Source: Candidatus Woesearchaeota archaeon
GTDB lineage: Archaea > Nanobdellota > Nanobdellia > SCGC-AAA011-G17 > JAPLZO01
DNA: 61,482 bases
Direction: 5' to 3'
Assembly (NCBI GenBank): GCA_043802295.1
Contig: JAZDLF010000037.1
Coordinates: 1-61,482, forward strand
The position numbers and the translations under genes are program-made. The notes beneath the pieces are model-generated. The model was not told the DNA's origin, searched no databases, and saw only the letters and a program-made list of their open reading frames with translations. Of this stretch, positions 31,083-60,179 are shown piece after piece. The stretch's first letter is position 1. Every line of letters starts with the position of its first letter.

Positions 31083-31139
31083 AAATATTAAAAACCTTAA
31101 TAAATAATGTTTTTAAACTTAATGAATTATAATACAATC

Positions 31140-38148: not shown

Positions 38149-38202
38149 AAAATTTATAAATTGACCACTTATAAATTTAATGAATATAAATTCAACACTA
38201 AA

Positions 38203-39171
38203 ATGATTAATAGAACTAAAATAAAAAATGTTATCCAAAAAAGCCAAATATCTAGAAATTTCTATAATTCTTATCTAAAATCTAAAATTTATTTGTATTT
38301 TAAACTATTAAATTTAGAAAATATAAAAGATATAGCTTTAGATGTTTTAGGCATAGAGTTTACTTCAATTTGTGATCTAAAATGTAAATGGTGTTCGCTT
38401 GATAATTCAAGGGCAAAAGGTTTTATGGAACCCAGATTATTCAAAAAAATATTAGATGACATATCTCAATCAGATATAAAAATAAAACATATTACATTAC
38501 ATCATGCTGGAGAAACATTATTACATCCAAAATTTAGAGAAATGTTAGAAATTTTAGGTGAAAAAAAGAAAAATACCCCAAATTTTCCTTATATTTCATT
38601 ATTAACTAATGCAACAACATTAAATGATAATAAAATAAATGCAATTTTAGAAACTGATTCAATTGATTGGATGAGATTTAGTATAGATGGTGGCAATAAA
38701 AAGGATTTTGAAGCTATACGAATAGGAGCAAAATGGGAAAATGTTTTATCTAATGTAAACAAATTTTTAGATAAAAATAAAAAAACAGGTAAAAATATCA
38801 AAACTTCTATATTATGTTTAATGACCAATCCTTCTAAACAAATTTCAGAAGAATTTAAAAAATTATTAGAAAAAGTAGATGAATATAGAATAAATCCACC
38901 ACATAACTGGGATGGTTCTAAAAACCTAGGTTTAAAATCTAAATTTATAAAAGGTGGTTGTTGGAGAGCATTAAAAAGTATGGCTATATTATGGGATGGT
39001 CGTGTTGTACCTTGTTGTGCTGATTTAAATGGAAGAGGTATTATAGGTGATTTAAAAACACAAAAACTATATAAGGTATACTTAGGTAAAGAAAGACTTA
39101 AAATATTAAACAAAATGAAAAATAATCAACGTAGTAAAATAGAATTATGTAAAAACTGTAGTAATTTTTAA
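38203..39171 (+). CDS. Radical SAM enzyme with SPASM/twitch-like C-terminal Cys domain
   Basis: FTSICDLKCKWCS (CxxxCxxC). The C-terminus has CWRALKSMAILWDGRVVPCCADLNG...CKNC. The track start at 38161 is TTG; ATG is at 38203. Confidence 0.75.
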   Translation: MINRTKIKNVIQKSQISRNFYNSYLKSKIYLYFKLLNLENIKDIALDVLGIEFTSICDLKCKWCSLDNSRAKGFMEPRLFKKILDDISQSDIKIKHITLHHAGETLLHPKFREMLEILGEKKKNTPNFPYISLLTNATTLNDNKINAILETDSIDWMRFSIDGGNKKDFEAIRIGAKWENVLSNVNKFLDKNKKTGKNIKTSILCLMTNPSKQISEEFKKLLEKVDEYRINPPHNWDGSKNLGLKSKFIKGGCWRALKSMAILWDGRVVPCCADLNGRGIIGDLKTQKLYKVYLGKERLKILNKMKNNQRSKIELCKNCSNF

Positions 39172-40082: not shown

Positions 40083-40676
40083 TTATAGATAAGCCTTCCA
40101 TTCAGATCCAAATTTTAATGATACCATCACAGCATCTGGTTTAAAATTTAACAATTTCATTTGTGAAATATACTTCTGTATATCTTCAGGTCTACCTAAT
40201 ACATCTGGGGAAACAATGCATGTCTTAAAACCAATAAGTTCTTTTGCAATCTTTTTATCTATTGGAAGTTTTGTGTTAGTATCTATCCATACCCAATCAA
40301 CAAGATTTTTATGTGCTAATGTAAATTCAATTGGTTCAGCTTCAGAGTATCTTACTGCAATTTTTTTAAAGTTATTCTTTCTAGTTGCTCTGTATATAAA
40401 AGGATATTCAACATCAAGTAAAAAATAGTCTTTAATATTATATCTCTCAGCTAGATTGATTACATCTTGTTCTATTCCTGTTTCTTTAATATTAAATATT
40501 ATAAAACTATGTTTATAATATTTCAAATATTCTTCTAAATCATCTCCATCTTGATGGGGTTCATGATTCAATATCAATCTATTTCCATTAGCTCTTATAT
40601 CTATTTCAACACCATATTTAAATGGAATTTTTTTTAATTCATCTATTTTATTTATTCTATGAATAATTATTATCAT
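40083..40676 (-). CDS. GDPD/PI-PLC-like phosphodiesterase (putative)
   Basis: The N-terminal IIHRINK...GVEIDIRANGNRLILNHEP resembles the HR...ExD...H catalytic pattern of glycerophosphodiester phosphodiesterases. Short, at 197 aa. Confidence 0.45.
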   Translation of the reverse strand: MIIIIHRINKIDELKKIPFKYGVEIDIRANGNRLILNHEPHQDGDDLEEYLKYYKHSFIIFNIKETGIEQDVINLAERYNIKDYFLLDVEYPFIYRATRKNNFKKIAVRYSEAEPIEFTLAHKNLVDWVWIDTNTKLPIDKKIAKELIGFKTCIVSPDVLGRPEDIQKYISQMKLLNFKPDAVMVSLKFGSEWKAYL

Positions 40677-42241
40677 TTTAACTCGTACACTGTTATTTCC
40701 AATTGATCTGAGGAAGGTGCAGGAGCAACATAAACTTTTCTATAACCTAATTTTAAAAGTGTATCAATTATTATTTTTTTATTTTTTGAATCTTTAGCTG
40801 CATAAATTTCCTCTAAAACTACAGATGGTTTATTTTTAGTTATATATTTTTCTATTATTGGTATATCTTTATCAAATAAGTTTGAACCTTCATGAAACCA
40901 GAGATGCAAACCTTTTGGTGGTTCTACATTGTAATCACAATAAAGAAAATTATATTCACTTAAACTAATAAAACTTTTATTATTTCTCTCTATAATATTT
41001 CGTATTTCTTTAAGATCTTTTGCATGAATATCTATATTAAAAAAACTAGCTCCTTTATAACAACCTTGATCTATTTTATTATGTGAATATAAAATATTGT
41101 ATACCTGTCCTATTGGTGTTGTAAAATATGAGTATCTTGTAAAAGTAAAGGGTTCTAAATAATTAAATTGCATTAATATAACAAAAAATATTATAATATA
41201 AGTTAACATTTTTTTACTAATAAAAAAAGATTTATTTATATCCAAATAATTAATGTTTTTATTTTTGATTAACAAATAAAATAAAAATAACATTATTGGT
41301 AAAGCCATAATCCTCATTTGATTTCTCATACCAGAAGAAACACTAGTTATAACAAAAAGAGAATTTATTATTATTAAAATACTTATTATTTTTTTATTTT
41401 TTATATTATCCTCTTTAAAAAATAGGAATAGCAAAAATATTAACAAATAAAAATTGAATGAATATAATGTTACACTCAGACCATATAAAGAAAAGATTTG
41501 ATATACAATTGAAGAATGTGGATATTGTTCTAATCCACCACCTTGTCCTAAGCTAAATTGATGCTCAAAATCACTAAAACTACTAAATATAACAAATATT
41601 AAAGAAGTTAATATCAAAAAAGGTAAGACATATTGAACTAATATCTTTTTAAAATCTTTTCTATAATAATAAACAAAATATAAAAATAATAAACCAAATT
41701 GCATTAAACCTGTATCTTGTTTTGAATAAAATGATAATATTGTTAGAATAGCAGATAATACTAAAATTTTTGTTTTAGCCTCTTTAACATCTAAATATTT
41801 AATCAAAATTAAAATGTTCAATAAAAAAAAGAAAAGGGCCATTTCATTATACCATGGAAGAGCAATCACTCCATAATATGAATAATAAAGAGCAATAGAC
41901 ATAAATATACTAAAAATATTGCCAAAATATTTTACAATGATAAAATAGAATATTATTGCTAAAATTGATGATAGAAATGCAACATGCATAGCCATTGCAA
42001 TTAAATTTGGGCCAAATATATGATTAAATAAAGCTTGTATATAAAATACAATTGGACCAACTGGAATAAAAAAATCTTTATATGGCACTTGACCTAAATA
42101 TATCCTATATCCACCAGCATATGTAGCAGAGAAATCACGAAGAAAATTTGTTCCAAAAGCACCTATCAAAGAAAAAATTACTATAAAAGAGATTATAACA
42201 AAACATGCAATAGAATGTTTAATTATGTTTTTTTTGTCCAT
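40673..42241 (-). CDS. Polytopic membrane protein, candidate GT-C glycosyltransferase
   Basis: 522 aa with about 12 TM segments plus a roughly 130-aa C-terminal soluble domain. Early loop GQVPYKDFFIPVGP is reminiscent of GT-C (DUF2029/GT87-like) proteins. 4-nt overlap with the downstream gene. Confidence 0.45.
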   Translation of the reverse strand: MDKKNIIKHSIACFVIISFIVIFSLIGAFGTNFLRDFSATYAGGYRIYLGQVPYKDFFIPVGPIVFYIQALFNHIFGPNLIAMAMHVAFLSSILAIIFYFIIVKYFGNIFSIFMSIALYYSYYGVIALPWYNEMALFFFLLNILILIKYLDVKEAKTKILVLSAILTILSFYSKQDTGLMQFGLLFLYFVYYYRKDFKKILVQYVLPFLILTSLIFVIFSSFSDFEHQFSLGQGGGLEQYPHSSIVYQIFSLYGLSVTLYSFNFYLLIFLLFLFFKEDNIKNKKIISILIIINSLFVITSVSSGMRNQMRIMALPIMLFLFYLLIKNKNINYLDINKSFFISKKMLTYIIIFFVILMQFNYLEPFTFTRYSYFTTPIGQVYNILYSHNKIDQGCYKGASFFNIDIHAKDLKEIRNIIERNNKSFISLSEYNFLYCDYNVEPPKGLHLWFHEGSNLFDKDIPIIEKYITKNKPSVVLEEIYAAKDSKNKKIIIDTLLKLGYRKVYVAPAPSSDQLEITVYELK

Positions 42242-42248
42242 TTTAAGA

Positions 42249-43697
42249 TTAAACAGTTACTTTTTTCATTCTATGTTTGAAAATATATTTAAGCAAATAA
42301 CCCCAAGAAGCATTGACATGATGTCTATTTGTAAAATAACCATCACTTAATCTCCAAAGTATTCTATATGCAACATTATCAGGTGTGTTAATTATAACAT
42401 TTTTAATAAACTCTCTCATCAATGGAAAGTTAATATATATTTGAGACCATCTAGAAAGTAATATTATTTTCTTACCATCTTTATCTCTTCTAAAACAATC
42501 ATAAAAATTCATGGTTGTATCACCAATCATACTTGAATCTTGAATCAATGTTTTGTCATACTGACCAATTTTAACACCATATTCAGTTATACTAAGTCTT
42601 GGAAATGGTTTAAAAATATTTACAGCAACAACAGAGTTTTTAGAAGATATTTTAGCAGCAAAATCCAAAGTTTCAAAAGCATTTTCTAAAGTCTCTCCAG
42701 GTAATCCTAACATAATAGACATTGAATATTTAAGATTATACTTCTTAAAAAGATCAGTTGCTTTAATATACTGCTCATTAGTTAATTTTTTATTAAGAGT
42801 AGTCATTCTAAATTTTTCATTACCTGTTTCTAAGCCTAATCTAATTATAAAACATTTTTTTGTATCTGCCAACAATTTACAATATTCATCATCAACCTCA
42901 TTAACAGTAGAATTAATAGTAAAAGGAAGATCAACTTTTTCTTTATATTTATTTAAAAATTCTCTTAACCATTTTTTATCATAACCTAAAGTACTATCAT
43001 TAAAAAATATATTTTTTATTTTATATTTTTCTTTTATCATAACACATTCTTTTATAACATTATCAACATCTCTTAAAGCACAATATTTTTTGTCTACATG
43101 AGCATACATTTCACGATATTTATGATTAAAACAATAAGAGCAGCTATAAGGACAGCCTCTTCCAACCATTACTAAACCAAATTCGATATCTCTAAAATAA
43201 GAAGAATAATCTCTATAAATCTCTCTATCTTCAAATAATCTTTCATTTACATCCTTAAAAGGTCTAATATCATTTTTAATTATTTTTCCATCTTTTTTAA
43301 CCCATAAATTAAGTATTTTTGAGTAATCTTGTTTTTTGTCTATTGCATCAGCTAATTCTACAATAACATCATCACCTTCTCCTCTACAAATAATATCAAT
43401 ATATGGGTTTTGAATTATTTCTGGAAAAAAAGATGCATCATGTCCACCAACAACAATCAGAGCTTTTATTTCATTTTGCCTTATTAATTTAGCAGTATCC
43501 ATCATATATTTTCTGTTTGCAGTTATAACAGAAAAAGCAATAATATCAGGATCAAATTCTTTTATTTCTCTTATTACTTTTTCATCCTCACCAATAGACA
43601 AACCAACTTTATGACCAGCATTTTTTAAAGCAGCAGAAAGTGTTCCAACTGCTTCAAAAGGGAACCATAAATTTTGAACAAATATAACTTTAGTCAT
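42249..43697 (-). CDS. B12-binding-domain radical SAM enzyme (class B), paralog of 33693-35225
   Basis: DIIAFSVITAN...IVVGGHDASFFP, GRGCPYSCSYC and NLWVKKDGKIIKNDIRP. Confidence 0.8.
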   Translation of the reverse strand: MTKVIFVQNLWFPFEAVGTLSAALKNAGHKVGLSIGEDEKVIREIKEFDPDIIAFSVITANRKYMMDTAKLIRQNEIKALIVVGGHDASFFPEIIQNPYIDIICRGEGDDVIVELADAIDKKQDYSKILNLWVKKDGKIIKNDIRPFKDVNERLFEDREIYRDYSSYFRDIEFGLVMVGRGCPYSCSYCFNHKYREMYAHVDKKYCALRDVDNVIKECVMIKEKYKIKNIFFNDSTLGYDKKWLREFLNKYKEKVDLPFTINSTVNEVDDEYCKLLADTKKCFIIRLGLETGNEKFRMTTLNKKLTNEQYIKATDLFKKYNLKYSMSIMLGLPGETLENAFETLDFAAKISSKNSVVAVNIFKPFPRLSITEYGVKIGQYDKTLIQDSSMIGDTTMNFYDCFRRDKDGKKIILLSRWSQIYINFPLMREFIKNVIINTPDNVAYRILWRLSDGYFTNRHHVNASWGYLLKYIFKHRMKKVTV

Positions 43698-43794
43698 AAA
43701 ACATTTTTTATAAAGAGGGGTATATAAATTTTATTATATATAGGTACAATTAAAATTTATTTCATCTAAGAAAAAGATATATCCATAATTTATC

Positions 43795-44625
43795 TTATTT
43801 TTTAAAATATTTTTTCCATAAAGGGAGCAACCTCTTTTCTTCTTCATTTATATCTAAAGGTATTACATTATTCTTAATTATAAACTCTATTCTTTCGTAA
43901 TCATATAAATCATCTGGCTTTCCCCACCCAACAAATAAATCAACATCAAAAATAATAGATTTTTTACCAATTTTTTTTAAAAATTTTGGAATTGAATCTA
44001 CATAAAATTCATTATTAGTTCTATAATTTTCTTTAATCATCAAATTTGATGCATCAATAAAATATTTCGCCTTTTTAAAATAAAAAGTACCTACAACAGC
44101 ATGATCATTATAAGAATTATTAGAAACAGGGACCTTTATTGATATATCTTTTATAGTTTCATTATCATCCTCAAGTATATACCACCCCCATGCATTTGGA
44201 TTTCTTCTAAGAGTTTCTCTTTTAGTAAATGTTAAGACTATACAATCAACATCTTTTTTTTCTCTTAATTCATCAAATTTATTTTTATTATAAAGAAAAC
44301 CAATATCACAAGATGCTATAATAAGATCATCATCTAAATCAAGATATTTTTCAGCAAGCATACAAGTACATGCCTGCCCTTCAGTTGTTTTATCTATCGC
44401 TATTATTATTGCATTGGGTATTTCTCTTTTAATAATCTTATCAACACCATAATCGATATGCTCTTGTCTCATAACAAAAATCCACTTATTTGCTTTTGGT
44501 AAATCCTTTATAACATTTAATATCATTGGTTTACCAGAAACAGATATTAATGACTTTAAAAGTTTATAACCAACTTGTGAAAACCTTGTCCCAAGTCCAG
44601 CCATTGGTATTAATATTGTTGTCAT
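43795..44625 (-). CDS. Sugar-phosphate nucleotidyltransferase-family protein
   Basis: ILIPMAGLGTRF (GxGTR signature). Paralogous to both halves of the upstream 524-aa protein. Confidence 0.7.
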   Translation of the reverse strand: MTTILIPMAGLGTRFSQVGYKLLKSLISVSGKPMILNVIKDLPKANKWIFVMRQEHIDYGVDKIIKREIPNAIIIAIDKTTEGQACTCMLAEKYLDLDDDLIIASCDIGFLYNKNKFDELREKKDVDCIVLTFTKRETLRRNPNAWGWYILEDDNETIKDISIKVPVSNNSYNDHAVVGTFYFKKAKYFIDASNLMIKENYRTNNEFYVDSIPKFLKKIGKKSIIFDVDLFVGWGKPDDLYDYERIEFIIKNNVIPLDINEEEKRLLPLWKKYFKK

Positions 44626-44642
44626 ATTGATTAATACAAAAA

Positions 44643-46211
44643 TTATTGAAGCATTTTGGAATATGGATGGTAGCTTAACTTATCAAAATAATCTTGCCAA
44701 TACATCATCTCTTTATAATTTATTATATTTCTAATTGGAACAAATCTATCTACCTCAAATATAGCTACCTTTCTTTTCTTTATAATATTATTAATACAAC
44801 TTAAATAATATATTTTTCCTGTTTTATTATTTTTAATTTCCTCTTCAATGCTATCAAATAAATATTTTGCTTTTTTAAATATGGTAGTGCCAGTAAGTGC
44901 ATGATCTAAGTAAGGATTATTTGATAATGTTCTCTTTTCTATGATCTGTTCAACCTCAATATTATTTTTTAATTTTGCATATGCAAAACCATCTGGATTT
45001 CTTAATACACATTCATGATGGGTAAAAGAAAATAAAATTATATCTATATCTTCTTTCTCCATTAAATTCATCATTTTCTTTTCATTATAATTTAAGATAT
45101 ATGTAGATCCACAAATACATACTGGTGATTCGGGGTCTATTTTATCTTTTAATTCATATATAGTTGAAGCATTACCTCTCTTTATATCATCAATATAAAC
45201 AACTTCTGAAGAATAATCTTTACATATAGGCAAATTATCAAAATATTCTTTTTCTTTATTCAATCCTATAAAAACATTTTTTATACCTCTTGGATTTGAT
45301 CTAAAAGAATAATCTATAAGTGTTTTATTCATTATTGGTATCATAAAATTAGGCACATCATATCCTATATCCTTAAAATCTTTTTCACCACCAGCTAAAG
45401 GAAAAATATTTGTTACATTTAAGTTTACATTATCAAAAGTTATGAAATTTGGTGCATATTGAAGGAAAAATTCAGACCAAAATTTATAAAGTGAATAATC
45501 TCTTGGAGTACCTAAACAAATAAATTTCTTAACTTCAAAATTTAATATTTTTAAAGAATCTTGAATCATCAATTTAAATGGTAAACTCATATAGAATTCT
45601 CCATTAATTGCATTTGCTGGATTATCAATTAATTTTTTAACATATTCTTTAAATAATTTACCATTAGAAAAATAGTAGGTACCTGTAGAGCCATAATCAT
45701 CCATTTTATTTTTTGAAAAGCTTTCTTTTTCTTTTATATCCTTAACAAAGCCTTCATCATTAACTTTCATATATGCATAAAGAGTATCCCCCAAAGATGA
45801 AGGATGAAAACCTTTAAAACTAACAATTGCACCCGCAGGATTTTTTTCTTTTAATATTTCACAAAATTTATTATAATCCCACTCCTGAATAAAATCACAA
45901 TAATTTACAATTATATCTTCATCATCAGATATATCATCAAATGCTGCAAGGCAAGTATATGCAGGACCATGTAGCATATCTTCACCCACACTTATAATCT
46001 TAGATGAAGGAGAAATTCTTTTTAATACTTTTGATATATTAGTTTTATTTAAGTGATCCTGATTACATAAAAATATAAATTCACTTTTTCTAGGAAAATA
46101 ATTTACTATATGTTCCATCATTGGTTTTCCATCTACTTGTATTAATGGTTTAGCTGATAAAAAATCACCAAACCTTTTTCCTTTTCCAGCCATAGGAATT
46201 ATTATTTTCAT
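44643..46211 (-). CDS. Tandem double nucleotidyltransferase-like protein
   Basis: The N-terminal module has IIIPMAGKGKRF. The second module has IFPLAGGEKDF. Both modules share later blocks with the 276-aa neighbour (DHALTGTTIFKKAKYLF vs DHAVVGTFYFKKAKYFI). The track start at 46217 is TTG; ATG is at 46211. Confidence 0.7.
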   Translation of the reverse strand: MKIIIPMAGKGKRFGDFLSAKPLIQVDGKPMMEHIVNYFPRKSEFIFLCNQDHLNKTNISKVLKRISPSSKIISVGEDMLHGPAYTCLAAFDDISDDEDIIVNYCDFIQEWDYNKFCEILKEKNPAGAIVSFKGFHPSSLGDTLYAYMKVNDEGFVKDIKEKESFSKNKMDDYGSTGTYYFSNGKLFKEYVKKLIDNPANAINGEFYMSLPFKLMIQDSLKILNFEVKKFICLGTPRDYSLYKFWSEFFLQYAPNFITFDNVNLNVTNIFPLAGGEKDFKDIGYDVPNFMIPIMNKTLIDYSFRSNPRGIKNVFIGLNKEKEYFDNLPICKDYSSEVVYIDDIKRGNASTIYELKDKIDPESPVCICGSTYILNYNEKKMMNLMEKEDIDIILFSFTHHECVLRNPDGFAYAKLKNNIEVEQIIEKRTLSNNPYLDHALTGTTIFKKAKYLFDSIEEEIKNNKTGKIYYLSCINNIIKKRKVAIFEVDRFVPIRNIINYKEMMYWQDYFDKLSYHPYSKMLQ

Positions 46212-46230
46212 ATTCAAATATTATCAATTA

Positions 46231-46941
46231 TTAGTTTAATCTACCTATTCTAATCCCCCATATATCTTTTATGAATGATTTAATATTATCCATCTTACCC
46301 ATTATAGAATAAGTCCATTTAGATAATCCATATATTCTTTTAGTAAACATAACATCAAAAGGAATTATTTTATAATCATTTTTAATTGCTTTATACTGAA
46401 CATATAAATCATAAGAAAAACCTTTTGGGGGGCTTTTGAATGTTTTTATTAATTCTTTATCAAATATCTTAGGCTGACCATTAATATCATCAAAATATTT
46501 TAATAAAATTATACTTGATAAAATTTGTAGACCATACGTTAAAATTAAAGATTTCCAATCTCTCATTTTACGATGTCCCTTTACCAACATATTACCATTA
46601 GATTTTTTGTATATATCATATCCTATAAAAATATCTTCTGGAGAACATTGCAAATCTCCATGAGACCATCCAACAATTTTACTATCACAATTTTGTAAAC
46701 CTATATTTATACCATTTCCATATCCAATATTATCTTTAATTCTAATAAGTTTTATAAAATCATATTCTTTTCTAATTTTTTGTATATATTTCCAAGTATT
46801 ATCTTTAGAACCATTGTCTACTATAACTAATTGAAATTTTATTTTTTTCTTTGCTTTTTCATATTTTTCAATAAGTAAAGGTAATGATTTTAATTCATTA
46901 AAACAAGGTATTGTTATAGATAATTCATATTCTTCAATCAT
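46231..46941 (-). CDS. GT2-family glycosyltransferase
   Basis: LSITIPCFNE and VDNGSKDNT blocks. The likely start is M24 (ATG 46941), which gives an 8-nt ATGATTGA overlap with the upstream rSAM stop. The track start at 47010 lies inside that gene. Confidence 0.75.
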   Translation of the reverse strand: MIEEYELSITIPCFNELKSLPLLIEKYEKAKKKIKFQLVIVDNGSKDNTWKYIQKIRKEYDFIKLIRIKDNIGYGNGINIGLQNCDSKIVGWSHGDLQCSPEDIFIGYDIYKKSNGNMLVKGHRKMRDWKSLILTYGLQILSSIILLKYFDDINGQPKIFDKELIKTFKSPPKGFSYDLYVQYKAIKNDYKIIPFDVMFTKRIYGLSKWTYSIMGKMDNIKSFIKDIWGIRIGRLN

Positions 46942-48460
46942 AGTTTTTAACCTGTAGGATATTTTTATTATTTTTCTTATCAAAAAAATCACTTTCAGGA
47001 TTTGTTGCATCTAAACCCGAACCTGATTTTGATATTGAAATGAATGTTTTTAATACATTAAATATAACAAAAGGATGGTTTATCATAAAGAAGAATATAT
47101 TTTTTATTCCATCCCAATTTTTTATATATGAAATGATATAATAAGATCTAGAGAGTTTACTAGAATTTTTAAAACTGTCTAGAATTAAATGCTTAGCCTT
47201 TACTATTTCTTCTTTAGACATATCAGAAATATCTATATAAAATGTATCATCTTTAAGATGATGCATTGAACTCCAGTCAATTTTTTCAGGTAATTTTTTT
47301 TCATTTTGTAATTGATTAAAAAGATAAGTACCTGGATAAGGAGTAGTTATAGAAACATATATTGAAAAAGGTTTAATTTTTTTTACAAGTTCAATAGTCT
47401 TATTAACATCATCCATATTTTCTGTTGGGTTACCTACCATCAAAAATGCATGTGTAAAAATTCCTACTTTTCTACAATCATTAAATTGTTTTATAACATC
47501 TTCTATTCTAAGGCTTTTATTGATAGCATTTAATATTTTCTGTGAACCACTTTCTACTCCAAAAGCTATATTTACACAACCAGCTTTTTTCATTAATTTT
47601 AGTAATTTTTTATCTAAACAAGCTCTTGCCTGACATCTCCAAATAATTCTTAGTTTCCTATTAATAAATTCTTTACATAGATTTTCTATATAATTTGGGT
47701 TTACCATATCATCACAAAAGAAAAATATATCGGGATTATATTTCTTTTTTAACTGCTCAATTTCATCAACTACATTTTTAGGTGATCTATATCTAATTTT
47801 ATTACCAAACATTTTCTTTAAATATGGTTGACAAAAAATGCAATTAAAAGGACATCCTCTAGATGTGATAATGTTTAATTCTTTAATTGGTTTGGATTTT
47901 ATATAAGTTTGAATAGGGAAAAGATCATAATTTGGGAAAGGTAATTCATCAAGGTTTTCAATAAATTCAGCTGCTCCTGTAAAATGTACAACTTTATTAT
48001 CTTTATAATACACTCCAGGTATATTCTTAACTGATTCATTTTTTAAAATTGTGTTACATAAATTATAAAATGTTTTTTCACCTTCACCAAATATTAAATA
48101 GTCTATATCCTTATTATTAATCAATTGTTGTGGCATATTAGTTGCATGGACACCTCCAACAATAATTATATTATTTTTATTTATTTCTTTTATCTTTTTG
48201 ATAACTTTTTCAGCTATATTTAATATAGGTGTAGTTATACTAACTCCATAAATTGCTCTTTCTTTACTTAATTCAAGATTGGAATTAAATGTATAATCAT
48301 AAATCCTAATATTAAGTCCTTGTTTTATTAGATATGAAGCAATATAACCTAAACCCAATGGAGGTAATACAGCTGACCCACTCTTATAATCGTTTGGCCA
48401 AACAAGATTAATTGTATTTGATAATTTGTCTTTCATTTTATGCCTATAAATTTTTTGCAT
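46934..48460 (-). CDS. B12-binding-domain radical SAM enzyme (class B)
   Basis: IYGVSITTP...IIVGGVHATNMP, SRGCPFNCIFC and GVESGSQKIL. Confidence 0.8.
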   Translation of the reverse strand: MQKIYRHKMKDKLSNTINLVWPNDYKSGSAVLPPLGLGYIASYLIKQGLNIRIYDYTFNSNLELSKERAIYGVSITTPILNIAEKVIKKIKEINKNNIIIVGGVHATNMPQQLINNKDIDYLIFGEGEKTFYNLCNTILKNESVKNIPGVYYKDNKVVHFTGAAEFIENLDELPFPNYDLFPIQTYIKSKPIKELNIITSRGCPFNCIFCQPYLKKMFGNKIRYRSPKNVVDEIEQLKKKYNPDIFFFCDDMVNPNYIENLCKEFINRKLRIIWRCQARACLDKKLLKLMKKAGCVNIAFGVESGSQKILNAINKSLRIEDVIKQFNDCRKVGIFTHAFLMVGNPTENMDDVNKTIELVKKIKPFSIYVSITTPYPGTYLFNQLQNEKKLPEKIDWSSMHHLKDDTFYIDISDMSKEEIVKAKHLILDSFKNSSKLSRSYYIISYIKNWDGIKNIFFFMINHPFVIFNVLKTFISISKSGSGLDATNPESDFFDKKNNKNILQVKNYD

Positions 48461-48463
48461 TTA

Positions 48464-49369
48464 TTAGTCATATTCTTTTAATGCATTTTTCCAATAATCT
48501 ACTGACTCTTTTAGATGTTGTAATACAAGACTATCATGTGGTTCTCTTTCTCTAAATGAAAGTTCTAAAAGCAAAATTGTATCCATAGATCTTTTTTCTT
48601 TTAATATTGCTATAATATCTTTAGGATTTATTTTCCCTATTTTATTATACTCTTCAATAAAAGGATAATGCCCACCTTTATCAGTTAATGATTGTTTTAT
48701 ATGCAAAAAAGGTGTAATATTTGCAAAGGTCTTTAACCACGTTTTATAATCATAGTCAGCTGGATTTTTAGATGTTATATCACCATGATCTACATCAAGA
48801 CAAAGGTTTATTGGTAATGCACTTCCTTCAAAAAGTTTTTGTATTCGTTCTGTTTCTTCTATAGTTTCTCCATATTCTCTTTTAATGGACATAGGCTCCC
48901 AACTTAAAGAAGATAACCCTATTTTTTTACAGTATTCAGCTAGTTCTCTCCATGCATTTATAGTTTCTTTTAGAATAAAGTTTCTTTTATTTCCATTATA
49001 AAGATCTTCATAACACATTATTCCTAAATGGCTTGATAGATTATTAGCACCTAATCTAGCTGTTATATCTGCTAATTTCTTAAACCATTTTTTCCAGTAA
49101 ATTCTCATATTTTCATCTGGATGAGAAAAATGATTAATTCTAGTAAATGCACCAGTCATAATACTTTCTATATTTATATTATATTCTAGTTTACACTTAT
49201 TTATACGTTTTACTAAATCATCTATAATAAAATTACCCCAAGCCGGATTTATCAAATCTGCTGTTAATTGTATATATTTTAAATTAAGCTCTTTTCCAAT
49301 AATCCTCATCCATTGTTCAGGAATAGGGTACCTATTTACCGCAAATCCAGTATTAATTCCGAGTTTCAT
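48464..49369 (-). CDS. Sugar phosphate isomerase/epimerase (xylose-isomerase-like TIM barrel)
   Basis: 301 aa. The pattern LGANNLSSHLG...WEP...LCLDVDHGD is typical of AP-endonuclease-2/xylose-isomerase-like TIM barrels. Confidence 0.6.
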   Translation of the reverse strand: MKLGINTGFAVNRYPIPEQWMRIIGKELNLKYIQLTADLINPAWGNFIIDDLVKRINKCKLEYNINIESIMTGAFTRINHFSHPDENMRIYWKKWFKKLADITARLGANNLSSHLGIMCYEDLYNGNKRNFILKETINAWRELAEYCKKIGLSSLSWEPMSIKREYGETIEETERIQKLFEGSALPINLCLDVDHGDITSKNPADYDYKTWLKTFANITPFLHIKQSLTDKGGHYPFIEEYNKIGKINPKDIIAILKEKRSMDTILLLELSFREREPHDSLVLQHLKESVDYWKNALKEYD

Positions 49370-49373
49370 GGTA

Positions 49374-50423
49374 TTATGGATTTATAACTATCTTAAGGTT
49401 TGATTTATCCTCCCTCAATTCTTTTATGGCTTCATTAAAGTCATCTAATTTAAATTTTTTACTTATTATATTAGAAAGATTTATTTTTCTTTTTTTTATT
49501 AATTCCACAGCCTTTTTATGTTGTAAAGGTGTTGAACCATGAGATCCAGTTATAAATATTTCATTATAATGTATAATATTTGATTTAAAAGAAATATCTC
49601 TATCAGTTCCAGGTAATCCTGCAAAAAAATTAATAATCCCCTTTCTTTTAATTAACTTTAGTGAAATTTCTTGTGCATCAACTGAAGGACAAGCAACAAT
49701 TATTATATCAAATCCTTGTCCATTTGTATATTTTTTATATATTTCCATCAAATTTTCATTAGTTGATAATACATATTCATCTGCATGAATAGATTTCTTT
49801 GCTATATTGATTCTTATTGGGTCTATATCTGTTAAAATTACTGTTGAAGCACCCATAATATAACCCAATTCTGATAACATACATCCCATTGGTCCTGCAC
49901 CAATTATTAAAACTTTATGCCCTAATTTTATATTACATAATTCATAACCGTTAATACAACAAGCAAGAGGTTCTGATAAAGAATATTCATCTTGGCGATT
50001 TTCAGTATCATCAATAATACATAATGGGCCATAATTTATGATTCTCTCATCTATTTTTAGATATTCAGCAAAACCTCCTTGAGTTTCATATCCAAAAGCA
50101 ATTGTATTTGAACAATGATTACCAACCCCATTTTTACACCATTCACATAAACCACAAGGAATATCAGCAGATAATGCAACCTTATCTCCTATTTTGAATT
50201 TTTTATTTACTTTTTTTCCTATTTCGACTATTTTTCCAGCTATTTCATGACCTAATATTTGGGGAAACTTAATTCTAGAACTTCCATTAGCAATTATCCT
50301 AAGATCACTTCCACAAATACTACAACTGTCTATCTTTATAAGTATATCATTGTCACTTATACTTGGTTTGGGTACTTCTTCTATATGTACATTATTAATA
50401 TCATACATTATTGCAGCTTTCAT
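49374..50423 (-). CDS. Zn-dependent medium-chain dehydrogenase/reductase (polyol or polyol-phosphate dehydrogenase-like)
   Basis: CSICGSD, GHEIAGKIVEIG, structural-Zn Cys cluster CGLCEWCKNGVGNHC, and NAD motif LIIGAGPMG. Confidence 0.8.
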   Translation of the reverse strand: MKAAIMYDINNVHIEEVPKPSISDNDILIKIDSCSICGSDLRIIANGSSRIKFPQILGHEIAGKIVEIGKKVNKKFKIGDKVALSADIPCGLCEWCKNGVGNHCSNTIAFGYETQGGFAEYLKIDERIINYGPLCIIDDTENRQDEYSLSEPLACCINGYELCNIKLGHKVLIIGAGPMGCMLSELGYIMGASTVILTDIDPIRINIAKKSIHADEYVLSTNENLMEIYKKYTNGQGFDIIIVACPSVDAQEISLKLIKRKGIINFFAGLPGTDRDISFKSNIIHYNEIFITGSHGSTPLQHKKAVELIKKRKINLSNIISKKFKLDDFNEAIKELREDKSNLKIVINP

Positions 50424-50424
50424 T

Positions 50425-52179
50425 TTACGGATTGATTATAACTTTTATAAATTCTATATCTTTATTTTTTATTATATTAAGAACTTTATCTATTTGATCT
50501 AATGAAAAAGTATGTGTGATTATATTATCTATTTTTATTTCATTTTTAGATATGTAATCTATACAAAATTTCCAATCATCATTATGTTTATCATTTATAA
50601 CCGAATTCCAAGAAGAGATTATATTTAACTCACCCCTCATAATATTTGACATAGAAGAAGGATTTAATGTAATACCTTGTTCATAATTGGCTAACATTAA
50701 TATTGTAGATTGTTTATCAACATATTTTAATGCATCATTAAATAGCTCTGAAGACCCACTACAATCAATTAACAAATCAAATTTTTTATCTTCAAAACTT
50801 TCAAAGGTTGGAAAGCATTCATCAAATTCCATATTCTTTGCTACATTTAATCTATAATTATTTTTATCAATTCCTACTATTTTTCCAGCTCCAAATCTTT
50901 TTAAGAGAATTCCTGTTAATAACCCTATTGGACCTAACCCCAAAATAAGTGCATTTGAATTGACTATTTTATTTATCTTTTTTAATCCATTATATACAAC
51001 AGCAAGCGGTTCTATAAGACATGCATTGTTATAATTAATATTATTGGGTAATATAAATACATTTTCTGCAGGAACAATACATATTTCAGCAAAGCCACCA
51101 TCACATCTAGAACCAAGATAATTATATTTCTCGCATAAATTATATTTTCCCATTTGGCAGAATTTACAATTCTTGCAAGGTATTAAAGGATATACGACTA
51201 CTCTTTGGTTCAAAAGATATCTATTTTTCTCTTTTGTCTTTACAACTAATCCTGAGAATTCATGTCCGGGTACTAAATTATTTGAATACATTCCTTTTTC
51301 AAATACTCTTGTAATATCCGAGCTACAAATACCACAACTCATCACTTTTACCACCACTTCATCCTCTTGAGGTGGCATTAATTCTTTATCTTCTAAAAAA
51401 ATATTACCTATCTGTTTTAAAACAGCCGCTTTGTAAGTTTTTTTTAAAGACGTAACTATATTATTTGAAATTTTTCTCTTTGATGGATCAAAAATTATAC
51501 CCTTAAATCTTTCAATATTATTACTTAATCCATCCTCATTAAATATTAAAGAACTTCCAGCAACAACTATATCAGCACCACTATCATATAATCTTTGGAT
51601 ATGTTCTAATCTAATGCCGCCATCTGATACAATTTGTACCTTTAATTTATTATTTTGAATATATGAGTATAAATCATTTATTTTTTTATAAACAACATCA
51701 TTAAAAGGTAAGCCTGAAAATCCTGTTTTTACATTCATTACTAAAACATAATCTATATATGGTAAATACTCTTCAATTTCATTAATAGTAGTTTCTAAAT
51801 TTATAGCTAATCCTACTTGAACTTCTTTTGATTTTAAATAATTTATATTTTTAAGAATATCTTCTTTTGTTTCTACATGAAATATTATGATATCCACATC
51901 ATATTTTATTAACTGATCAAAATATTTAGATGGTTCTCGAACCATTAGATGCACATCAAAAGGTATTCTGGTTAATTCTCTACATTCTTTTATTATCCCA
52001 ATATTAAATGCCAAATTATCAGCAAATAAACCATCAATTATATCAATATGAAGATAATCTATCCCTGATTTAACTAATGAAATCACATTCCTCATTATAT
52101 GCTTTTGATCAGCACACATTAATGATGCAGCAATTTTCATAGCATTTTCACTCCTAAAGTCTTGAATTTTTATATTCAT
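50425..52179 (-). CDS. Fusion protein: ribulose-phosphate 3-epimerase domain plus Zn-dependent MDR dehydrogenase domain
   Basis: The N-terminal ~225 aa carry HIDIIDGLFADNLAF, FDVHLMV, IFHVE, VMNVKTGFSG and VSDGGI (Rpe signature blocks). The C-terminal ~335 aa carry CGICSSD, PGHEFSGLVV, CKNCKFCQMGKYNLC and LILGLGPIG (MDR). Confidence 0.8.
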   Translation of the reverse strand: MNIKIQDFRSENAMKIAASLMCADQKHIMRNVISLVKSGIDYLHIDIIDGLFADNLAFNIGIIKECRELTRIPFDVHLMVREPSKYFDQLIKYDVDIIIFHVETKEDILKNINYLKSKEVQVGLAINLETTINEIEEYLPYIDYVLVMNVKTGFSGLPFNDVVYKKINDLYSYIQNNKLKVQIVSDGGIRLEHIQRLYDSGADIVVAGSSLIFNEDGLSNNIERFKGIIFDPSKRKISNNIVTSLKKTYKAAVLKQIGNIFLEDKELMPPQEDEVVVKVMSCGICSSDITRVFEKGMYSNNLVPGHEFSGLVVKTKEKNRYLLNQRVVVYPLIPCKNCKFCQMGKYNLCEKYNYLGSRCDGGFAEICIVPAENVFILPNNINYNNACLIEPLAVVYNGLKKINKIVNSNALILGLGPIGLLTGILLKRFGAGKIVGIDKNNYRLNVAKNMEFDECFPTFESFEDKKFDLLIDCSGSSELFNDALKYVDKQSTILMLANYEQGITLNPSSMSNIMRGELNIISSWNSVINDKHNDDWKFCIDYISKNEIKIDNIITHTFSLDQIDKVLNIIKNKDIEFIKVIINP

Positions 52180-52317: not shown

Positions 52318-53817
52318 TTAAAAATTACTATTTTTAAATTTTATTTTTTGTAAAAAAGTTCTTATGATTAATCTATCTTGATAATCCAAACACTTAAAGA
52401 TATATAATAAAAATAAGTATATAATTAAAAATAATAATAAAAGGAAAATAAGTTTATGTAATGATAATACAATAATTTTACTTAATTTATAAATAATAAA
52501 TATAGAAACCAAGCCAATTATAAATATTTTTAAATAAATCCATTTAATTGGCTGTAAATTATTAATCTTATGAGCATAATAAAAAAATAAAACCCCGATT
52601 AAAGTAAAAGATATAAATGTTGAAATAGCAGCACCCATTAATTTGAATTTAGGCACTAAAATAAGACTTAATATTGTACCAGTTATTGCTGCAATTAGTG
52701 TTATATAAAAAATAATCTTAGTCTTTTTTGCTATACTTAAGAGATCAAATGCTATTTTAGATAAAGAATAAAATATATATCCAAGAGATAAAATTGATAG
52801 GGCTAATGCACCTTTACTATATTCACCCCCAAACATTATTCCCAAAATATTTTTGGAAAAAAAGAAAAATACAAGATATATTGGCACTATCATTAAAAAA
52901 ATCCATTTTGTTGTAGTATCATAAATCAATTTTAAATCTTTATTTTTACTGTATCCCTCAGTCATAATAGGAAATGATAATGTAGTTAATGCTATTGGAA
53001 TTAAATACATTAAATCTGCTGTTGACAAAGAAACATTATAAATACCAACAGATGATGCATTTTCAAAATAACCAAGTATAAATGTATTTACCCATCTAAT
53101 AATCATAAAGAAAAAACCAGTAAAAACAAGTGGCAAAGAATATTTTAATATTTCGCTCCTATAATAATGAGTTTTTATTTTAGTAAATATAGAAAAAACT
53201 TTTTTCTCCATTAAATAAAAAGATATTATAAAAGTAGAAACTGCAGCTACAGTATAAGCTATAGAAGCACCATAAACACTTAATCCAAAATAAAACAATA
53301 ATAAAGTTAATAATATATTGACTATTTTTTCAATTATTTCTCTTGCTCCAATAGCATAACCAATCTTATGATATGCTCTTAATACATGTATAAATATATT
53401 ACCCAAAACAAAAAAAGGCACACCAATAATTATTATTCTTAAAATTAATGTTAGACTATCATCATGAAATAAATTTGCAATTTTATCTGCGAATATAAAA
53501 ATAATAGAAGAAAGTAACAAACTTAAAGGCAAAGTAATTTGTAAAGCGGATACAATCGCACCTTTAATTTTGTTTTTATTATTTTTAGCTTTATAAAAAG
53601 ATACATATCTTAAAACACCAATATTTAAACCAAGTAATGCTATTATACCAACAAGAGCATATATACCAAAACCAATATTAAGCAAACCAAATTTATAACT
53701 ACCTAATCTTGCTAATATTAAAACATAAAAATAACCAAGAAGTTTAGAAAATAAACTTCCAATAAAAACGATACCTGCTCCTCCTGCAATTTTTATTAAA
53801 GAATCATGATCATTCAT
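52318..53817 (-). CDS. Wzx-type MOP-superfamily oligosaccharide flippase
   Basis: 499 aa with about 14 TM segments and the N-terminal AGGAGIVFIGSLFSKLLGYFYVLILAR block, typical of polysaccharide biosynthesis (flippase) proteins. Confidence 0.75.
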   Translation of the reverse strand: MNDHDSLIKIAGGAGIVFIGSLFSKLLGYFYVLILARLGSYKFGLLNIGFGIYALVGIIALLGLNIGVLRYVSFYKAKNNKNKIKGAIVSALQITLPLSLLLSSIIFIFADKIANLFHDDSLTLILRIIIIGVPFFVLGNIFIHVLRAYHKIGYAIGAREIIEKIVNILLTLLLFYFGLSVYGASIAYTVAAVSTFIISFYLMEKKVFSIFTKIKTHYYRSEILKYSLPLVFTGFFFMIIRWVNTFILGYFENASSVGIYNVSLSTADLMYLIPIALTTLSFPIMTEGYSKNKDLKLIYDTTTKWIFLMIVPIYLVFFFFSKNILGIMFGGEYSKGALALSILSLGYIFYSLSKIAFDLLSIAKKTKIIFYITLIAAITGTILSLILVPKFKLMGAAISTFISFTLIGVLFFYYAHKINNLQPIKWIYLKIFIIGLVSIFIIYKLSKIIVLSLHKLIFLLLLFLIIYLFLLYIFKCLDYQDRLIIRTFLQKIKFKNSNF

Positions 53818-53864: not shown

Positions 53865-54215
53865 TTAAGCGCTAATTCCTATTAAAACAACACCTACTAT
53901 TATCAAAATAATGCCTAGCCATTTCATTATATTCATTTTTTCTTTTACAAAATATATTGATAATAAGATTATCCATATATAACCGAGAGATAAAAATGGA
54001 TAAACCATTGTTAATGGACCATATCTTAAAGCTCCTAAAAAAAATAAAGCTGATACTCCATACAAAAATATACCAAATAAAAATTTATAATTTTTAAATA
54101 AACCTTTAAATGTTAGACTAATTTCTTTAGATCCAAGTTTTAAAAATAATGCCCCAAATGCTCCTATAAAAGTTGTAATTATTACTAAAAGTATAATAAA
54201 TATTTTATTAACCAT
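53865..54215 (-). CDS. Small 4-TM EamA/SMR-like transporter, ArnE/ArnF-like (partner 2)
   Basis: About 116 aa with 4 TM segments. Shares the (E/D)xMNIMKWLGI...GV C-terminal block with its neighbour. The track start at 54227 is TTG; ATG at 54215 gives an 8-nt overlap. Confidence 0.65.
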   Translation of the reverse strand: MVNKIFIILLVIITTFIGAFGALFLKLGSKEISLTFKGLFKNYKFLFGIFLYGVSALFFLGALRYGPLTMVYPFLSLGYIWIILLSIYFVKEKMNIMKWLGIILIIVGVVLIGISA

Positions 54216-54567
54216 TTTTACTTCCAAGTCCTATAGAACTTACGCCTCCAATTATAAATGCAATACCTAACCATTTCATTATATTCATGTGATCACTAAA
54301 AAAATAAGGTGAGAGTAAACTAACCCAAACATAAGCTAATGCATTTATAGGATACAAAGAAGATAAATTTCCATATTTTAATGCTATTGTAAAAATTAAA
54401 CCAGATCCAAGATATAAAATAATACCTAATATTAAAATATAATTTGTTAATATACTATTTATATCTAACTTCCAATTGTTCATACCACTTTTTAAAGATA
54501 TTTGACCAAAAGAAATAATTATAGTACCAATTAGAACTATAATAATAGACAATCTCTTTTTATCCAT
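54208..54567 (-). CDS. Small 4-TM EamA/SMR-like transporter, ArnE/ArnF-like (partner 1)
   Basis: 119 aa with 4 TM segments. Paralog of the adjacent gene (DHMNIMKWLGIAFIIGGV). Confidence 0.65.
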   Translation of the reverse strand: MDKKRLSIIIVLIGTIIISFGQISLKSGMNNWKLDINSILTNYILILGIILYLGSGLIFTIALKYGNLSSLYPINALAYVWVSLLSPYFFSDHMNIMKWLGIAFIIGGVSSIGLGSKNG

Positions 54568-57621: not shown

Positions 57622-57656
57622 CAAGCTTTTTAAACTAATTTGGTGATTTAATTAAG

Positions 57657-57755
57657 ATGAAACAAAAAAAAGAAAATAAGGAAAAAGAAAACATTTTTAG
57701 TAAAGAAGATGAAGAAATAGTAAAAGAAAGATTAAAAAAATTAGGTTATCTATAA
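57657..57755 (+). CDS. 32-aa ORF duplicating the C-terminal tail of the adjacent RHH protein (possible small protein or gene remnant)
   Basis: MKQKKENKEKENIFSKEDEEIVKERLKKLGYL. The last ~19 aa match the tail FSKKDEEEIKKRLKSLGYL of the 57795-58031 product. Below the ORF-track size cutoff; translated by hand. Confidence 0.35.
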   Translation: MKQKKENKEKENIFSKEDEEIVKERLKKLGYL

Positions 57756-57794
57756 TTAGAAAAGTTTATAATCTTTCTTTAATTATATTTAATT

Positions 57795-58031: not shown

Positions 58032-58091
58032 ACCAATTATTTATGATTCAGAACATTTAAATAATCATTATATATAATTATAGATATTAAA

Positions 58092-59279: not shown

Positions 59280-59320
59280 ATTAAAACTATGCACTATAGC
59301 ATAGAAATATTTAAATACCT

Positions 59321-59344
59321 TAATTATACATAATTATACATAAT
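59321..59344 (+). repeat. Tandem direct repeat TAATTATACA x2.4 abutting a start codon
   Basis: 59321-59330 and 59331-59340 are identical. 59341-59344 repeats the first 4 nt and runs into the ATG at 59343. Confidence 0.6.
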
Positions 59345-60131: not shown

Positions 60132-60179
60132 AATTTTTTGTTCATAATCTTTAAATAATAATAAAAAAACTTTTTCTAA

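Follow-up and report, generated by a model that had tools for sequence, protein, structure and literature searches.

A 61,482-nucleotide stretch of DNA from a metagenome-derived genome of a Candidatus Woesearchaeota archaeon (contig JAZDLF010000037.1 of assembly GCA_043802295.1; hereafter the window) carries on its minus strand, at 40083-52179, ten consecutive and tightly packed open reading frames (ORFs), numbered here as genes 1 to 10 in the direction of transcription. From the families to which their products belong, we consider it about an even bet that these ten genes form one cassette through which a unit derived from a pentulose phosphate would be activated with a nucleotide and put on the cell surface via a lipid carrier. 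The main new result is the modularity of this cassette. Its supply genes (an Rpe epimerase domain fused to a zinc-dependent medium-chain dehydrogenase/reductase (MDR), a second MDR and an EryC homologue) and its core genes (a double nucleotidyltransferase, a small GT2 glycosyltransferase and a 197-amino-acid (aa) protein, with or without GtrA) each occur without the other. A preliminary description of the locus, made from its letters, had read it as a route to CDP-ribitol or a similar nucleotide-linked alditol for teichoic-acid-like envelope chemistry. That reading is partly supported by the results below, and the likeness to CDP-ribitol synthesis is confined to the first step.

Exchange of supply modules around a common core

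Relatives of the fusion protein were recovered by an alignment-based genome scan; a scan with the single sequence gave none. The fusion occurs in about 20 protein clusters, and for at least seven of them the double nucleotidyltransferase appears to be on the same contig. Linkage of supply genes to this nucleotidyltransferase recurs in at least nine independent archaeal loci. Loci L002 and L003 carry the cassette genes in synteny, L091, L093 and L107 carry them rearranged, and L001 and L011 have part of them; the ten-gene arrangement is therefore not due to chance.

In bacteria, Rpe, the dehydrogenase corresponding to the fused one (MDR1) and the second dehydrogenase (MDR2), with or without the EryC homologue, are encoded by separate adjacent genes. 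This arrangement was seen in Poribacteria, Acidobacteriaceae, Actinomycetes, Caldilineales, Aerophobetes and Anaerolineales, with the MDR2 homologues that accompany Rpe and MDR1 scoring 305-370 bits. No homologue of the cassette nucleotidyltransferases, the small GT2 or the 197-aa protein lies near these separate genes, whose neighbours look catabolic (a class II aldolase of the fructose-bisphosphate type, a RhaA-like isomerase and GFO/IDH/MocA oxidoreductases). Because the supply genes occur without the core genes in such contexts, they look like a self-contained system for sugar-phosphate interconversion and not like a dead-end route to an alditol.

The core, for its part, is found in a fixed bacterial cassette in which a membrane domain fused to phosphoribulokinase (PRK), a HAD protein and an Aldolase_II protein accompany the double nucleotidyltransferase, GtrA, the GT2 and the 197-aa homologue. 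Of 42 metagenome loci that span 10 kb or more, 35 have the PRK fusion, 30 the 197-aa protein, 27 the GT2, 27 Aldolase_II and 22 the HAD protein. The archaeal supply genes (MDR2/EryC-like) were found in two of the 42, and both supply types together in none. The bacterial PRK domain scores 181 bits to phosphoribulokinase, and the one HAD protein tested, that of L083, has ribulose 1,5-bisphosphate (RuBP) 5-phosphatase as its best NCBIfam match (158 bits, under the cut-off).

In haloarchaea, RuBP 5-phosphatase makes ribulose 1-phosphate within a non-carboxylating pentose bisphosphate pathway that also uses ribulose-1-phosphate aldolase, is catabolic, and ends in dihydroxyacetone phosphate and glycolaldehyde (PMC9700705). 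The bacterial sister cassette shares with that pathway a PRK domain, a HAD protein with this best match and a class II aldolase-family protein, and ribulose-1-phosphate-type intermediates are therefore indicated. However, its enzymes stand in a fixed order with nucleotidyltransferases and a GT2, they score under the equivalog cut-offs, and the window has MDR- and EryC-type enzymes instead.

A third supply variant, on Nanoarchaeota-type contigs, comprises a GtrA::Rpe::His_Phos_1 fusion and a LigT-like cyclic phosphodiesterase, joined in L086 by a true AraD (308 bits, cut-off 257). Beside it stand a nucleotidyltransferase, a GT2, the 197-aa protein, a GT-C membrane glycosyltransferase and a radical SAM enzyme of the gene 8 type. 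All three supply variants are built from ketopentose-phosphate enzymes, and reductases occur only in the archaeal MDR/EryC variant.

The bacterial cassette is also carried by plasmids. It is present in two of 5426 complete E. coli genomes, in both on an IncR plasmid and with 100% identity (NZ_CP145712.1, 6022-14984; L168), and on plasmids of Hirschia baltica ATCC 49814 (pHbal01, NC_012983.1; L169) and Azospirillum brasilense (NZ_CP032350.1). These plasmid cassettes encode the double nucleotidyltransferase, GtrA, the GT2, a PLC/GDPD-family protein (GDPD, glycerophosphodiester phosphodiesterase), the membrane::kinase fusion (annotated as uridine kinase or phosphoribulokinase), the HAD protein and the class II aldolase. 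In the fusions of L083 (13365-15413) and L084 (6094-8208), the PRK-like P-loop kinase is preceded by a membrane domain of about 380 aa that has numerous hydrophobic segments and that, in L084, gives a weak match to the GT-C-like MptA_B. If this membrane domain were a GT-C, a single protein would combine what are presumed to be the first and the last pathway step.

Domain content of the ten genes

That ten minus-strand genes are nearly contiguous, as the preliminary description reported, is borne out by the ORF coordinates (Table 1). From gene 1 to gene 10, the junctions are spacers of 1, 4 and 3 nucleotides (nt), an overlap, spacers of 13, 17, 97 and 7 nt, and a 4-nt overlap. Pfam and NCBIfam scans agree with its domain list for the Rpe fusion to a zinc dehydrogenase, the second such dehydrogenase, the two B12-binding radical SAM enzymes, the GT2 and the GT-C; for genes 3, 6 and 10 the list needs correction, as set out below. 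Gene 1 probably starts at M20 (ATG at 52122), which has GGAG 11 nt upstream and is the start in most homologues, and the GT2 of gene 5 probably starts at M24 (46941).

Table 1. Genes of the cassette and of its upstream flank, with the matches on which each assignment is based.
Feature	Coordinates	Strand	Basis
Gene 1: Rpe domain (residues ~20-235) and GatD-like Zn-MDR dehydrogenase (~250-584)	50425-52179	-	PF00834, ADH_N, ADH_zinc_N
Gene 2: second Zn-MDR dehydrogenase, Tdh/IolM/polyol-dehydrogenase type	49374-50423	-	Pfam, NCBIfam and PDB matches
Gene 3: EryC-type TIM-barrel epimerase/racemase (keto-polyol phosphates)	48464-49369	-	AP_endonuc_2; PDB 4k3z
Gene 4: B12-binding radical SAM enzyme, accessory tailoring	46934-48460	-	PF02310 and PF04055
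Gene 5: small GT2, polyprenyl-phosphate glycosyltransferase type	46231-47010	-	PF00535; PDB matches
Gene 6: two-domain sugar-phosphate nucleotidyltransferase	44643-46217	-	NTP_transferase (Pfam); PDB 4evw profile match
Gene 7: single nucleotidyltransferase, canonical P-loop	43795-44625	-	weak NCBIfam RmlA/GlmU matches only
Gene 8: B12-binding radical SAM enzyme, after the 97-nt gap	42249-43697	-	Pfam, NCBIfam
Gene 9: GT-C membrane glycosyltransferase (PMT_2/ArnT-like)	40673-42241	-	PF13231
Gene 10: 197-aa cytoplasmic minimal TIM barrel, GDPD/PLC-like fold	40083-40676	-	AlphaFold (AF2) model and Foldseek
Wzx/MOP-family flippase, directly upstream of the cassette	52318-53817	-	PF01943, PF13440, PF03023
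Two small EamA half-transporters	53865-54227 and 54208-54567	-	best NCBIfam matches ArnF, ArnE

The Rpe half of gene 1 (PF00834 at 2e-50) reaches 202.7 bits against NF004076, passing the cut-off of 165, and 178.8 bits against TIGR01163, missing the cut-off of 212.6; it also scores 157 bits to AlsE, a hexulose-phosphate epimerase, in NCBIfam. Given the missed cut-off and the AlsE score, its substrate could still be a hexulose phosphate. The closest characterized relative of the MDR half is the polyol-phosphate dehydrogenase GatD, galactitol-1-phosphate 5-dehydrogenase, but the MDR half is not a member of that family (NF007642, 166.6 bits against a cut-off of 550; top PDB match 4a2c, 145.7 bits). 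Across 21 fusion proteins, the Rpe metal ligands H44, D46, H77 and D186, the catalytic-zinc residues C285, H306 and E307 of the MDR, its four structural-zinc cysteines and its GxGxxG motif are invariant, so both halves look active. A start from a pentulose phosphate and a polyol-phosphate redox step, both part of the preliminary description, are supported by these matches. Its proposed relationship to TarJ is not: the 60 best PDB matches of MDR1 (all of at least 59.7 bits) are headed by GatD and include no TarJ or ribulose-5-phosphate reductase chain. A TarJ crystal structure is in print, as the reference list of PMC12994016 (reference 46) indicates. When MDR1 was compared with plasmids by tblastn, the labels among 40 sampled records included galactitol-1-phosphate 5-dehydrogenase, idonate dehydrogenase and butanediol dehydrogenase, and none was ribulose-5-phosphate reductase.

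Gene 2 is most similar to Tdh (197.6 bits) and IolM (186 bits), far under both cut-offs and without an equivalog assignment. Gene 3 had been called a xylose-isomerase-like TIM barrel. It is indeed a TIM barrel (AP_endonuc_2), but a more specific one, matching Brucella EryC over its full length (PDB 4k3z, labelled 'D-erythrulose 4-phosphate dehydrogenase'; E 8.7e-74, 251.8 bits, residues 2-294 on 25-319). EryC is now described as a tetrulose-4-phosphate racemase that acts on the keto product of erythritol-phosphate oxidation, and its pathway oxidizes a polyol phosphate to a keto-polyol phosphate whose keto group is next to the phosphorylated carbon (PMC11508834). The cassette pathway proposed below would share such an oxidation. 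It differs from the EryC pathway in having no EryA/B/H/I partners and in its biosynthetic context with Rpe, because of which the substrate of gene 3 is probably a C5 and not a C4 compound.

Gene 6 had been described as a double nucleotidyltransferase, and two NTP_transferase domains are present, but only domain 1 has a canonical P-loop (PMAGKGKRF...KPL); that of domain 2 is degenerate (PLAGGEKDF...PNF, residues ~270-300). Throughout the archaeal subfamily, domain 2 lacks the G-x-G-x-R and Lys of the P-loop, whereas both domains of the bacterial relatives are canonical. The product of gene 7 matches each domain of the double nucleotidyltransferase from bacteria at 246 bits. Because a separate single canonical nucleotidyltransferase is seen only in cassettes of the archaeal type, domain 2 of gene 6 looks like a compensated pseudo-enzyme domain, and gene 7 probably supplies the second active nucleotidyltransferase. 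Two canonical P-loops are kept in archaeal and bacterial versions alike, in agreement with the nucleotide activation that had been proposed, and two active domains appear to be required.

In profile comparisons with the PDB, gene 6 scores 71 bits to 4evw (an NDP-sugar pyrophosphorylase from Vibrio; NDP, nucleoside diphosphate) and 37 bits to GlmU, and also matches RmlA and HddC. IspD (~19-21 bits, N-terminal loop only) and CTP:inositol-1-phosphate cytidylyltransferase (IPCT) reach about 20 bits, and the IspD model TIGR00453 reaches 15.5 bits over residues 5-44 only. The Foldseek matches of its AF2 model (pLDDT 92.9) repeat this order, with sugar-1-phosphate nucleotidyltransferases at the top, and the best 50 include no TarI or IspD. 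The relationship to TarI anticipated in the preliminary description therefore finds no support in either the HMM or the structure comparison. The products of genes 6 and 7 are GlmU/RmlA/HddC-like and not TarI/IspD-type enzymes. IPCT stands at Foldseek rank 34 (TMt 0.77) with a score nearly that of the sugar-1-phosphate enzymes, and the structure comparison does not separate specificity for sugar 1-phosphates from specificity for polyol phosphates.

The description of gene 10 as GDPD-like holds for the fold of its AF2 model (pLDDT 96.7), but has no counterpart in Pfam (including PF03009) or NCBIfam at E up to 0.01, or in a profile search of the PDB, where nothing fell under E 0.2; the sequence and profile searches returned noise. 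GDPDs occupy the first five Foldseek ranks (E 4e-5 to 1e-4, TMq 0.60-0.72). Because TenI, Rpe and TrpF barrels, which bind phosphate, follow closely, an isomerase- or cyclase-like activity is possible. Residues H6, R7, E24, D26 and H38 are invariant in the family and lie at the C-terminal ends of barrel strands, and their order of HR, ExD and H is typical of GDPDs. Compared with GDPDs, the protein is short (197 against about 250 aa), lacks PF03009, is cytoplasmic and is fixed beside nucleotidyltransferases. Its 1742 homologues, of about 60% identity, occur in DPANN archaea and bacteria of the candidate phyla radiation (CPR) without family annotation; RefSeq names the bacterial homologues 'PI-PLC/GDPD family protein'. 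Roles that would fit two nucleotidyltransferase activities are those of a cyclizing phosphodiesterase, a ketose-1-phosphate/aldose-1-phosphate isomerase, or a phosphotransferase decorating a lipid-linked sugar. Among the homologues P0241-P0360, some are fused to PF14251 (PterinBD-DUF4346), and where neighbourhoods were inspected (L085-L087) homologues adjoin nucleotidyltransferases, small GT2, GtrA and GT-C genes.

The remaining genes resemble those of lipid-linked glycosylation systems. The best PDB matches of gene 5 are the Pyrococcus Dol-P-Man synthase 5mlz (42.6 bits), GtrB 5ekp and ArnC, and its NCBIfam matches are PgfS (45.2 bits) and ArnC (40.8 bits), which places it, by similarity, with the polyprenyl-phosphate glycosyltransferases. 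Its homologues (146-317 bits) stand beside the nucleotidyltransferase in archaeal and bacterial cassettes. About 1.7 kb upstream of the cassette, two EamA proteins of 119-120 aa score 32-42 bits to ArnF/ArnE against cut-offs of 92-99, and a comparable pair adjoins the L091 cassette. GtrA takes the place of this pair in other cassettes, being adjacent in L001, L083, L085 and the E. coli and Hirschia plasmids. The pair is a probable flippase for the lipid-linked intermediate and a presumed member of the cassette. Gene 9 (522 aa, hydrophobic over most of its length) matches PF13231 PMT_2 at 27.7 bits, over the cut-off of 26.1, and its homologues (272-279 bits) lie beside gene 10 homologues in L086 and L087.

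Gene 4 is HpnJ/BchE-like in NCBIfam, under the cut-offs, with homologues in some cassettes and none in L002 or most bacterial cassettes. Gene 8 homologues (548-740 bits) lie beside gene 10 or GT-C genes in L086, L087 and L089, and homologues of genes 8, 9 and 10 are also found together in other loci. The 97-nt gap (43698-43794) contains a TATA-like box, TTTATATA, about 30 nt before the ATG of gene 8. Because of this box and of the co-occurrence of genes 8-10 elsewhere, an internal promoter may lie ahead of gene 8, with genes 8-10 forming a second transcript.

A candidate pathway and its alternatives

The simplest reading of these gene contents is that the conserved precursor would be a ketopentose phosphate and not an alditol phosphate. 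Because the same core runs in bacteria on a reductase-free supply module, a pentitol phosphate would be an intermediate of the archaeal route and not the transferred group. In the supply stage, Rpe and the GatD-like dehydrogenase would take ribulose 5-phosphate (Ru5P) or xylulose 5-phosphate (Xu5P) and reduce it to a pentitol 5-phosphate, which the second MDR would re-oxidize at a different carbon. The EryC-type enzyme would then epimerize beside the new keto group, giving a rare ketopentose phosphate that, from the EryC substrate class, would most likely be of the ketose-1-phosphate type. The two dehydrogenases would thereby effect a redox 'end swap', in which C2 is reduced and the carbon next to the phosphorylated end is then oxidized to yield a ketose 1-phosphate.

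In the activation stage, domain 1 of gene 6 and gene 7 would make one or more NDP-linked donors, and the cytoplasmic GDPD-fold protein would process a phosphate ester. For delivery, the DPM1/GtrB/ArnC-like GT2 would load the unit on polyprenyl phosphate, the ArnE/F-like pair would flip the lipid-linked unit, and the GT-C would move it to a surface glycan; the B12-binding radical SAM enzymes would tailor the unit, probably by C-methylation. Transfer through a lipid-linked unit is favoured because a GT2, a small flippase and a GT-C together have the anatomy of ArnC/ArnEF/ArnT or GtrABC. The cassette shares with those systems the GT2 type and a PMT_2/ArnT-like GT-C, and a putative small flippase accompanies it, ArnE/F-like here and GtrA in sister cassettes. 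Unlike them, it includes a module for donor synthesis, a pair of nucleotidyltransferase activities and a GDPD-fold protein, to which archaeal cassettes add B12-binding radical SAM enzymes, and its ArnE/F scores are under the cut-off.

On paper, the archaeal and bacterial supply modules could arrive at the same compound. The archaeal route would run from D-Ru5P through ribitol 5-phosphate and L-ribulose 1-phosphate to L-xylulose 1-phosphate by 3-epimerization, and the bacterial route from D-Ru5P through RuBP and D-ribulose 1-phosphate to L-xylulose 1-phosphate by 4-epimerization. A more specific version is speculative, and we hold it to be rather improbable. It envisages an undescribed nucleotide-sugar pathway, common among DPANN archaea, CPR bacteria and aquatic proteobacteria, in which Ru5P or Xu5P would be converted to a ketopentose 1-phosphate, and two nucleotidyl transfers in succession together with the GDPD-fold enzyme (as a cyclizing phosphodiesterase or a ketose-1-phosphate/aldose-1-phosphate isomerase) would shift the activation to the anomeric carbon. 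This would yield a rare pentose or pentulofuranose on a lipid carrier, which unit the GT-C would add to the surface.

Several points weigh against the ketopentose-phosphate pathway. Every chemical step, and with it the substrates, the step order, the identity of the product and the acceptor, is deduced from family membership, and none of MDR1, MDR2, the HAD protein, the PRK domain or the ArnE/F-like proteins reaches a curated equivalog cut-off. The model gives no explanation of how a ketose 1-phosphate becomes an anomerically activated donor for the GT2, and assigns the GDPD-fold protein no explained role. Since IPCT scores close to the sugar-1-phosphate enzymes, a polyol phosphate could be a substrate of the nucleotidyltransferases. 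The sugar handled by the GT2, the flippase and the GT-C could also be an ordinary one, and the pentulose-derived unit could be attached by other means.

An account nearer to the preliminary description would have the cassette make an NDP-pentitol, or an NDP-ketopentose that is later reduced as in AbpA/AbpB, with pentitol phosphate then joined by a phosphodiester to a glycan or lipid-linked sugar in a teichoic-acid-like manner. The GDPD-fold protein would be a phosphotransferase or a trimming phosphodiesterase, and the GT2, flippase and GT-C would carry the decorated sugar. The cassette does have in common with TarI/TarJ of Staphylococcus aureus and Streptococcus pneumoniae, and with the AbpA/AbpB route to CDP-arabinitol, a Zn-MDR reductase with a nucleotidyltransferase, an envelope-glycan locus and, probably, a pentulose 5-phosphate start. 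The fusion of Rpe to an MDR resembling polyol-phosphate dehydrogenases, the presence of two MDRs, and the conservation of a GDPD-fold enzyme beside the nucleotidyltransferases also agree with it. Enzymes for polyol phosphates, such as IPCT, and for phosphocholine belong to the same fold family as the nucleotidyltransferases, and two active nucleotidyltransferases would suit two donors, a sugar and a polyol phosphate. However, the transfer step that the preliminary description postulated is not supported. No TagF/TarK/TarL, LicD/FKTN, CDP-alcohol phosphotransferase or Stealth protein, and no match to PF04464, PF04991 or PF01066, appeared in a Pfam scan that took in all window ORFs of 110 aa or more except two that overlap others or are nested, and we know of no GDPD-family enzyme that transfers polyol phosphate from an NDP donor. 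In contrast to TarI/TarJ, the cassette has a reductase nearer GatD than any TarJ chain, nucleotidyltransferases that are GlmU/RmlA/4evw-like and not IspD-type, an extra MDR and an EryC homologue, and no ribitol-phosphate transferase or polymerase, and it is linked to a GT2, a flippase and a GT-C. The CDP-ribitol model has no use for the second MDR or for the EryC homologue, which would act on keto compounds and not on alditols. It does not account for the reductase-free sister cassettes, and most bacterial loci run the core on PRK, HAD and aldolase without a homologue of either MDR. We therefore regard the NDP-pentitol account as unlikely.

The occurrence of Rpe, MDR1, MDR2 and the EryC homologue in catabolic-looking bacterial contexts, away from homologues of the nucleotidyltransferases, the GT2 and the 197-aa protein, also allows two unrelated functions to lie side by side in the window. 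Genes 1-3 would then serve catabolic or salvage interconversion of pentose and pentitol phosphates, and the nucleotidyltransferases, GT2 and GT-C would handle an ordinary nucleotide sugar; a pentose-bisphosphate pathway elsewhere in the window, at 817-8204, fits with this. Against such an arrangement stand the 1-17 nt spacers and overlaps that bind the genes together, the recurrent archaeal linkage of supply genes to the double nucleotidyltransferase described above, and the presence in bacteria of a different pentulose-phosphate module in the equivalent position, with the same core and in fixed order. We consider two separate functions very improbable.

Setting in a glycosylation island and wider meaning

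The whole window, with G+C of about 24% all along, is a glycosylation island, in keeping with the envelope-glycan context that had been proposed for the ten genes. It holds many GT2 and GT4 genes, three PMT_2 GT-C genes, several methyltransferases and a GDP-mannose dehydratase, and includes AglB/STT3 (17905-20529) and an AglH-like GT4 (20526-21518). The Wzx/MOP flippase upstream of gene 1 is part of this context. Wzx homologues lie near the cassette in L001, L087 and L091, and the place of the flippase in the cassette is uncertain. Five paralogous B12-binding radical SAM genes are present (9805-11223, 11225-12625, 33693-35225, 42249-43697 and 46934-48460), with two further radical SAM genes (26816-28108 and 38161-39171), one of which encodes a SPASM domain. 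Class I and FkbM methyltransferase genes lie near them, and none of the radical SAM proteins reaches an equivalog cut-off. This wealth of radical SAM and methyltransferase genes suggests heavy tailoring of glycans, probably by C-methylation. A phosphonate pathway of the Fom1/Fom3 type was also considered and dropped, as neither phosphoenolpyruvate mutase nor any other family of such a pathway turned up in Pfam scans of the window ORFs.

The minus strand at 817-8204 encodes what looks like a complete AMP/pentose-bisphosphate pathway of the archaeal kind. AMP phosphorylase (817-2322, 584 bits) and type III RuBisCO (5457-6710, 562 bits) exceed their cut-offs, and an IF-2B protein (7392-8204) resembles ribose-1,5-bisphosphate isomerase at 163 bits, under the cut-off. 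The HAD protein at 6742-7395 is phosphoglycolate-phosphatase-like; with matches to PpaX and phosphoglycolate phosphatase, it was ruled out as a RuBP-5-phosphatase-like enzyme. This pathway would provide RuBP in a genome that bears a pentulose-phosphate cassette.

On the other side of the cassette, a divergent plus-strand block (56212-61160) encodes four proteins: one of the type I phosphodiesterase/nucleotide pyrophosphatase family (56212-57621), one of the sulfatase family whose LtaS/EptA-like matches are weak (58092-59279), one with a PAPS-reductase domain (59343-60131) and one of the NAD-dependent epimerase/dehydratase family (60180-61160). This block could serve sulfation or the transfer of phospho-substituents to surface glycans. 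A NUDIX hydrolase (29626-30027), a nucleoside 2-deoxyribosyltransferase-like protein (31107-31541) and QueC (32752-33477) are scattered among the glycosyltransferase genes, and a NUDIX gene also adjoins the homologue of the 197-aa protein in L086.

Literature searches on CDP-ribitol or teichoic acids in archaea and DPANN, GtrA/GT-C combinations, phosphoribulokinase with GtrA, and xylulofuranose biosynthesis gave no description of this cassette, which appears to be undescribed. It is best filed with the lipid-linked three-component systems of surface glycosylation, the chemistry of donor supply being what is new. Nor did the searches return a report of teichoic-acid-like polyol phosphate in Archaea; if the model of the preliminary description were true, it would be, as far as we know, the first such case.

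Because the double nucleotidyltransferase matches at least 577 metagenome stretches and the 197-aa protein has its 1742 homologues, the cassette is common and not peculiar to one genome. The recruitment to glycan synthesis of enzymes of a carbon-metabolism type (Rpe, phosphoribulokinase, the RuBP-phosphatase-like HAD, class II aldolase and EryC) would correct many annotations. With the bacterial version on plasmids of cultivable E. coli isolates, Hirschia baltica ATCC 49814 and Azospirillum brasilense, the system is experimentally tractable. In DPANN archaea and CPR bacteria, surface decorations matter for host association because these organisms live attached to host cells. A new surface unit derived from a pentose or pentitol would be a candidate factor in the association of these organisms with their hosts.

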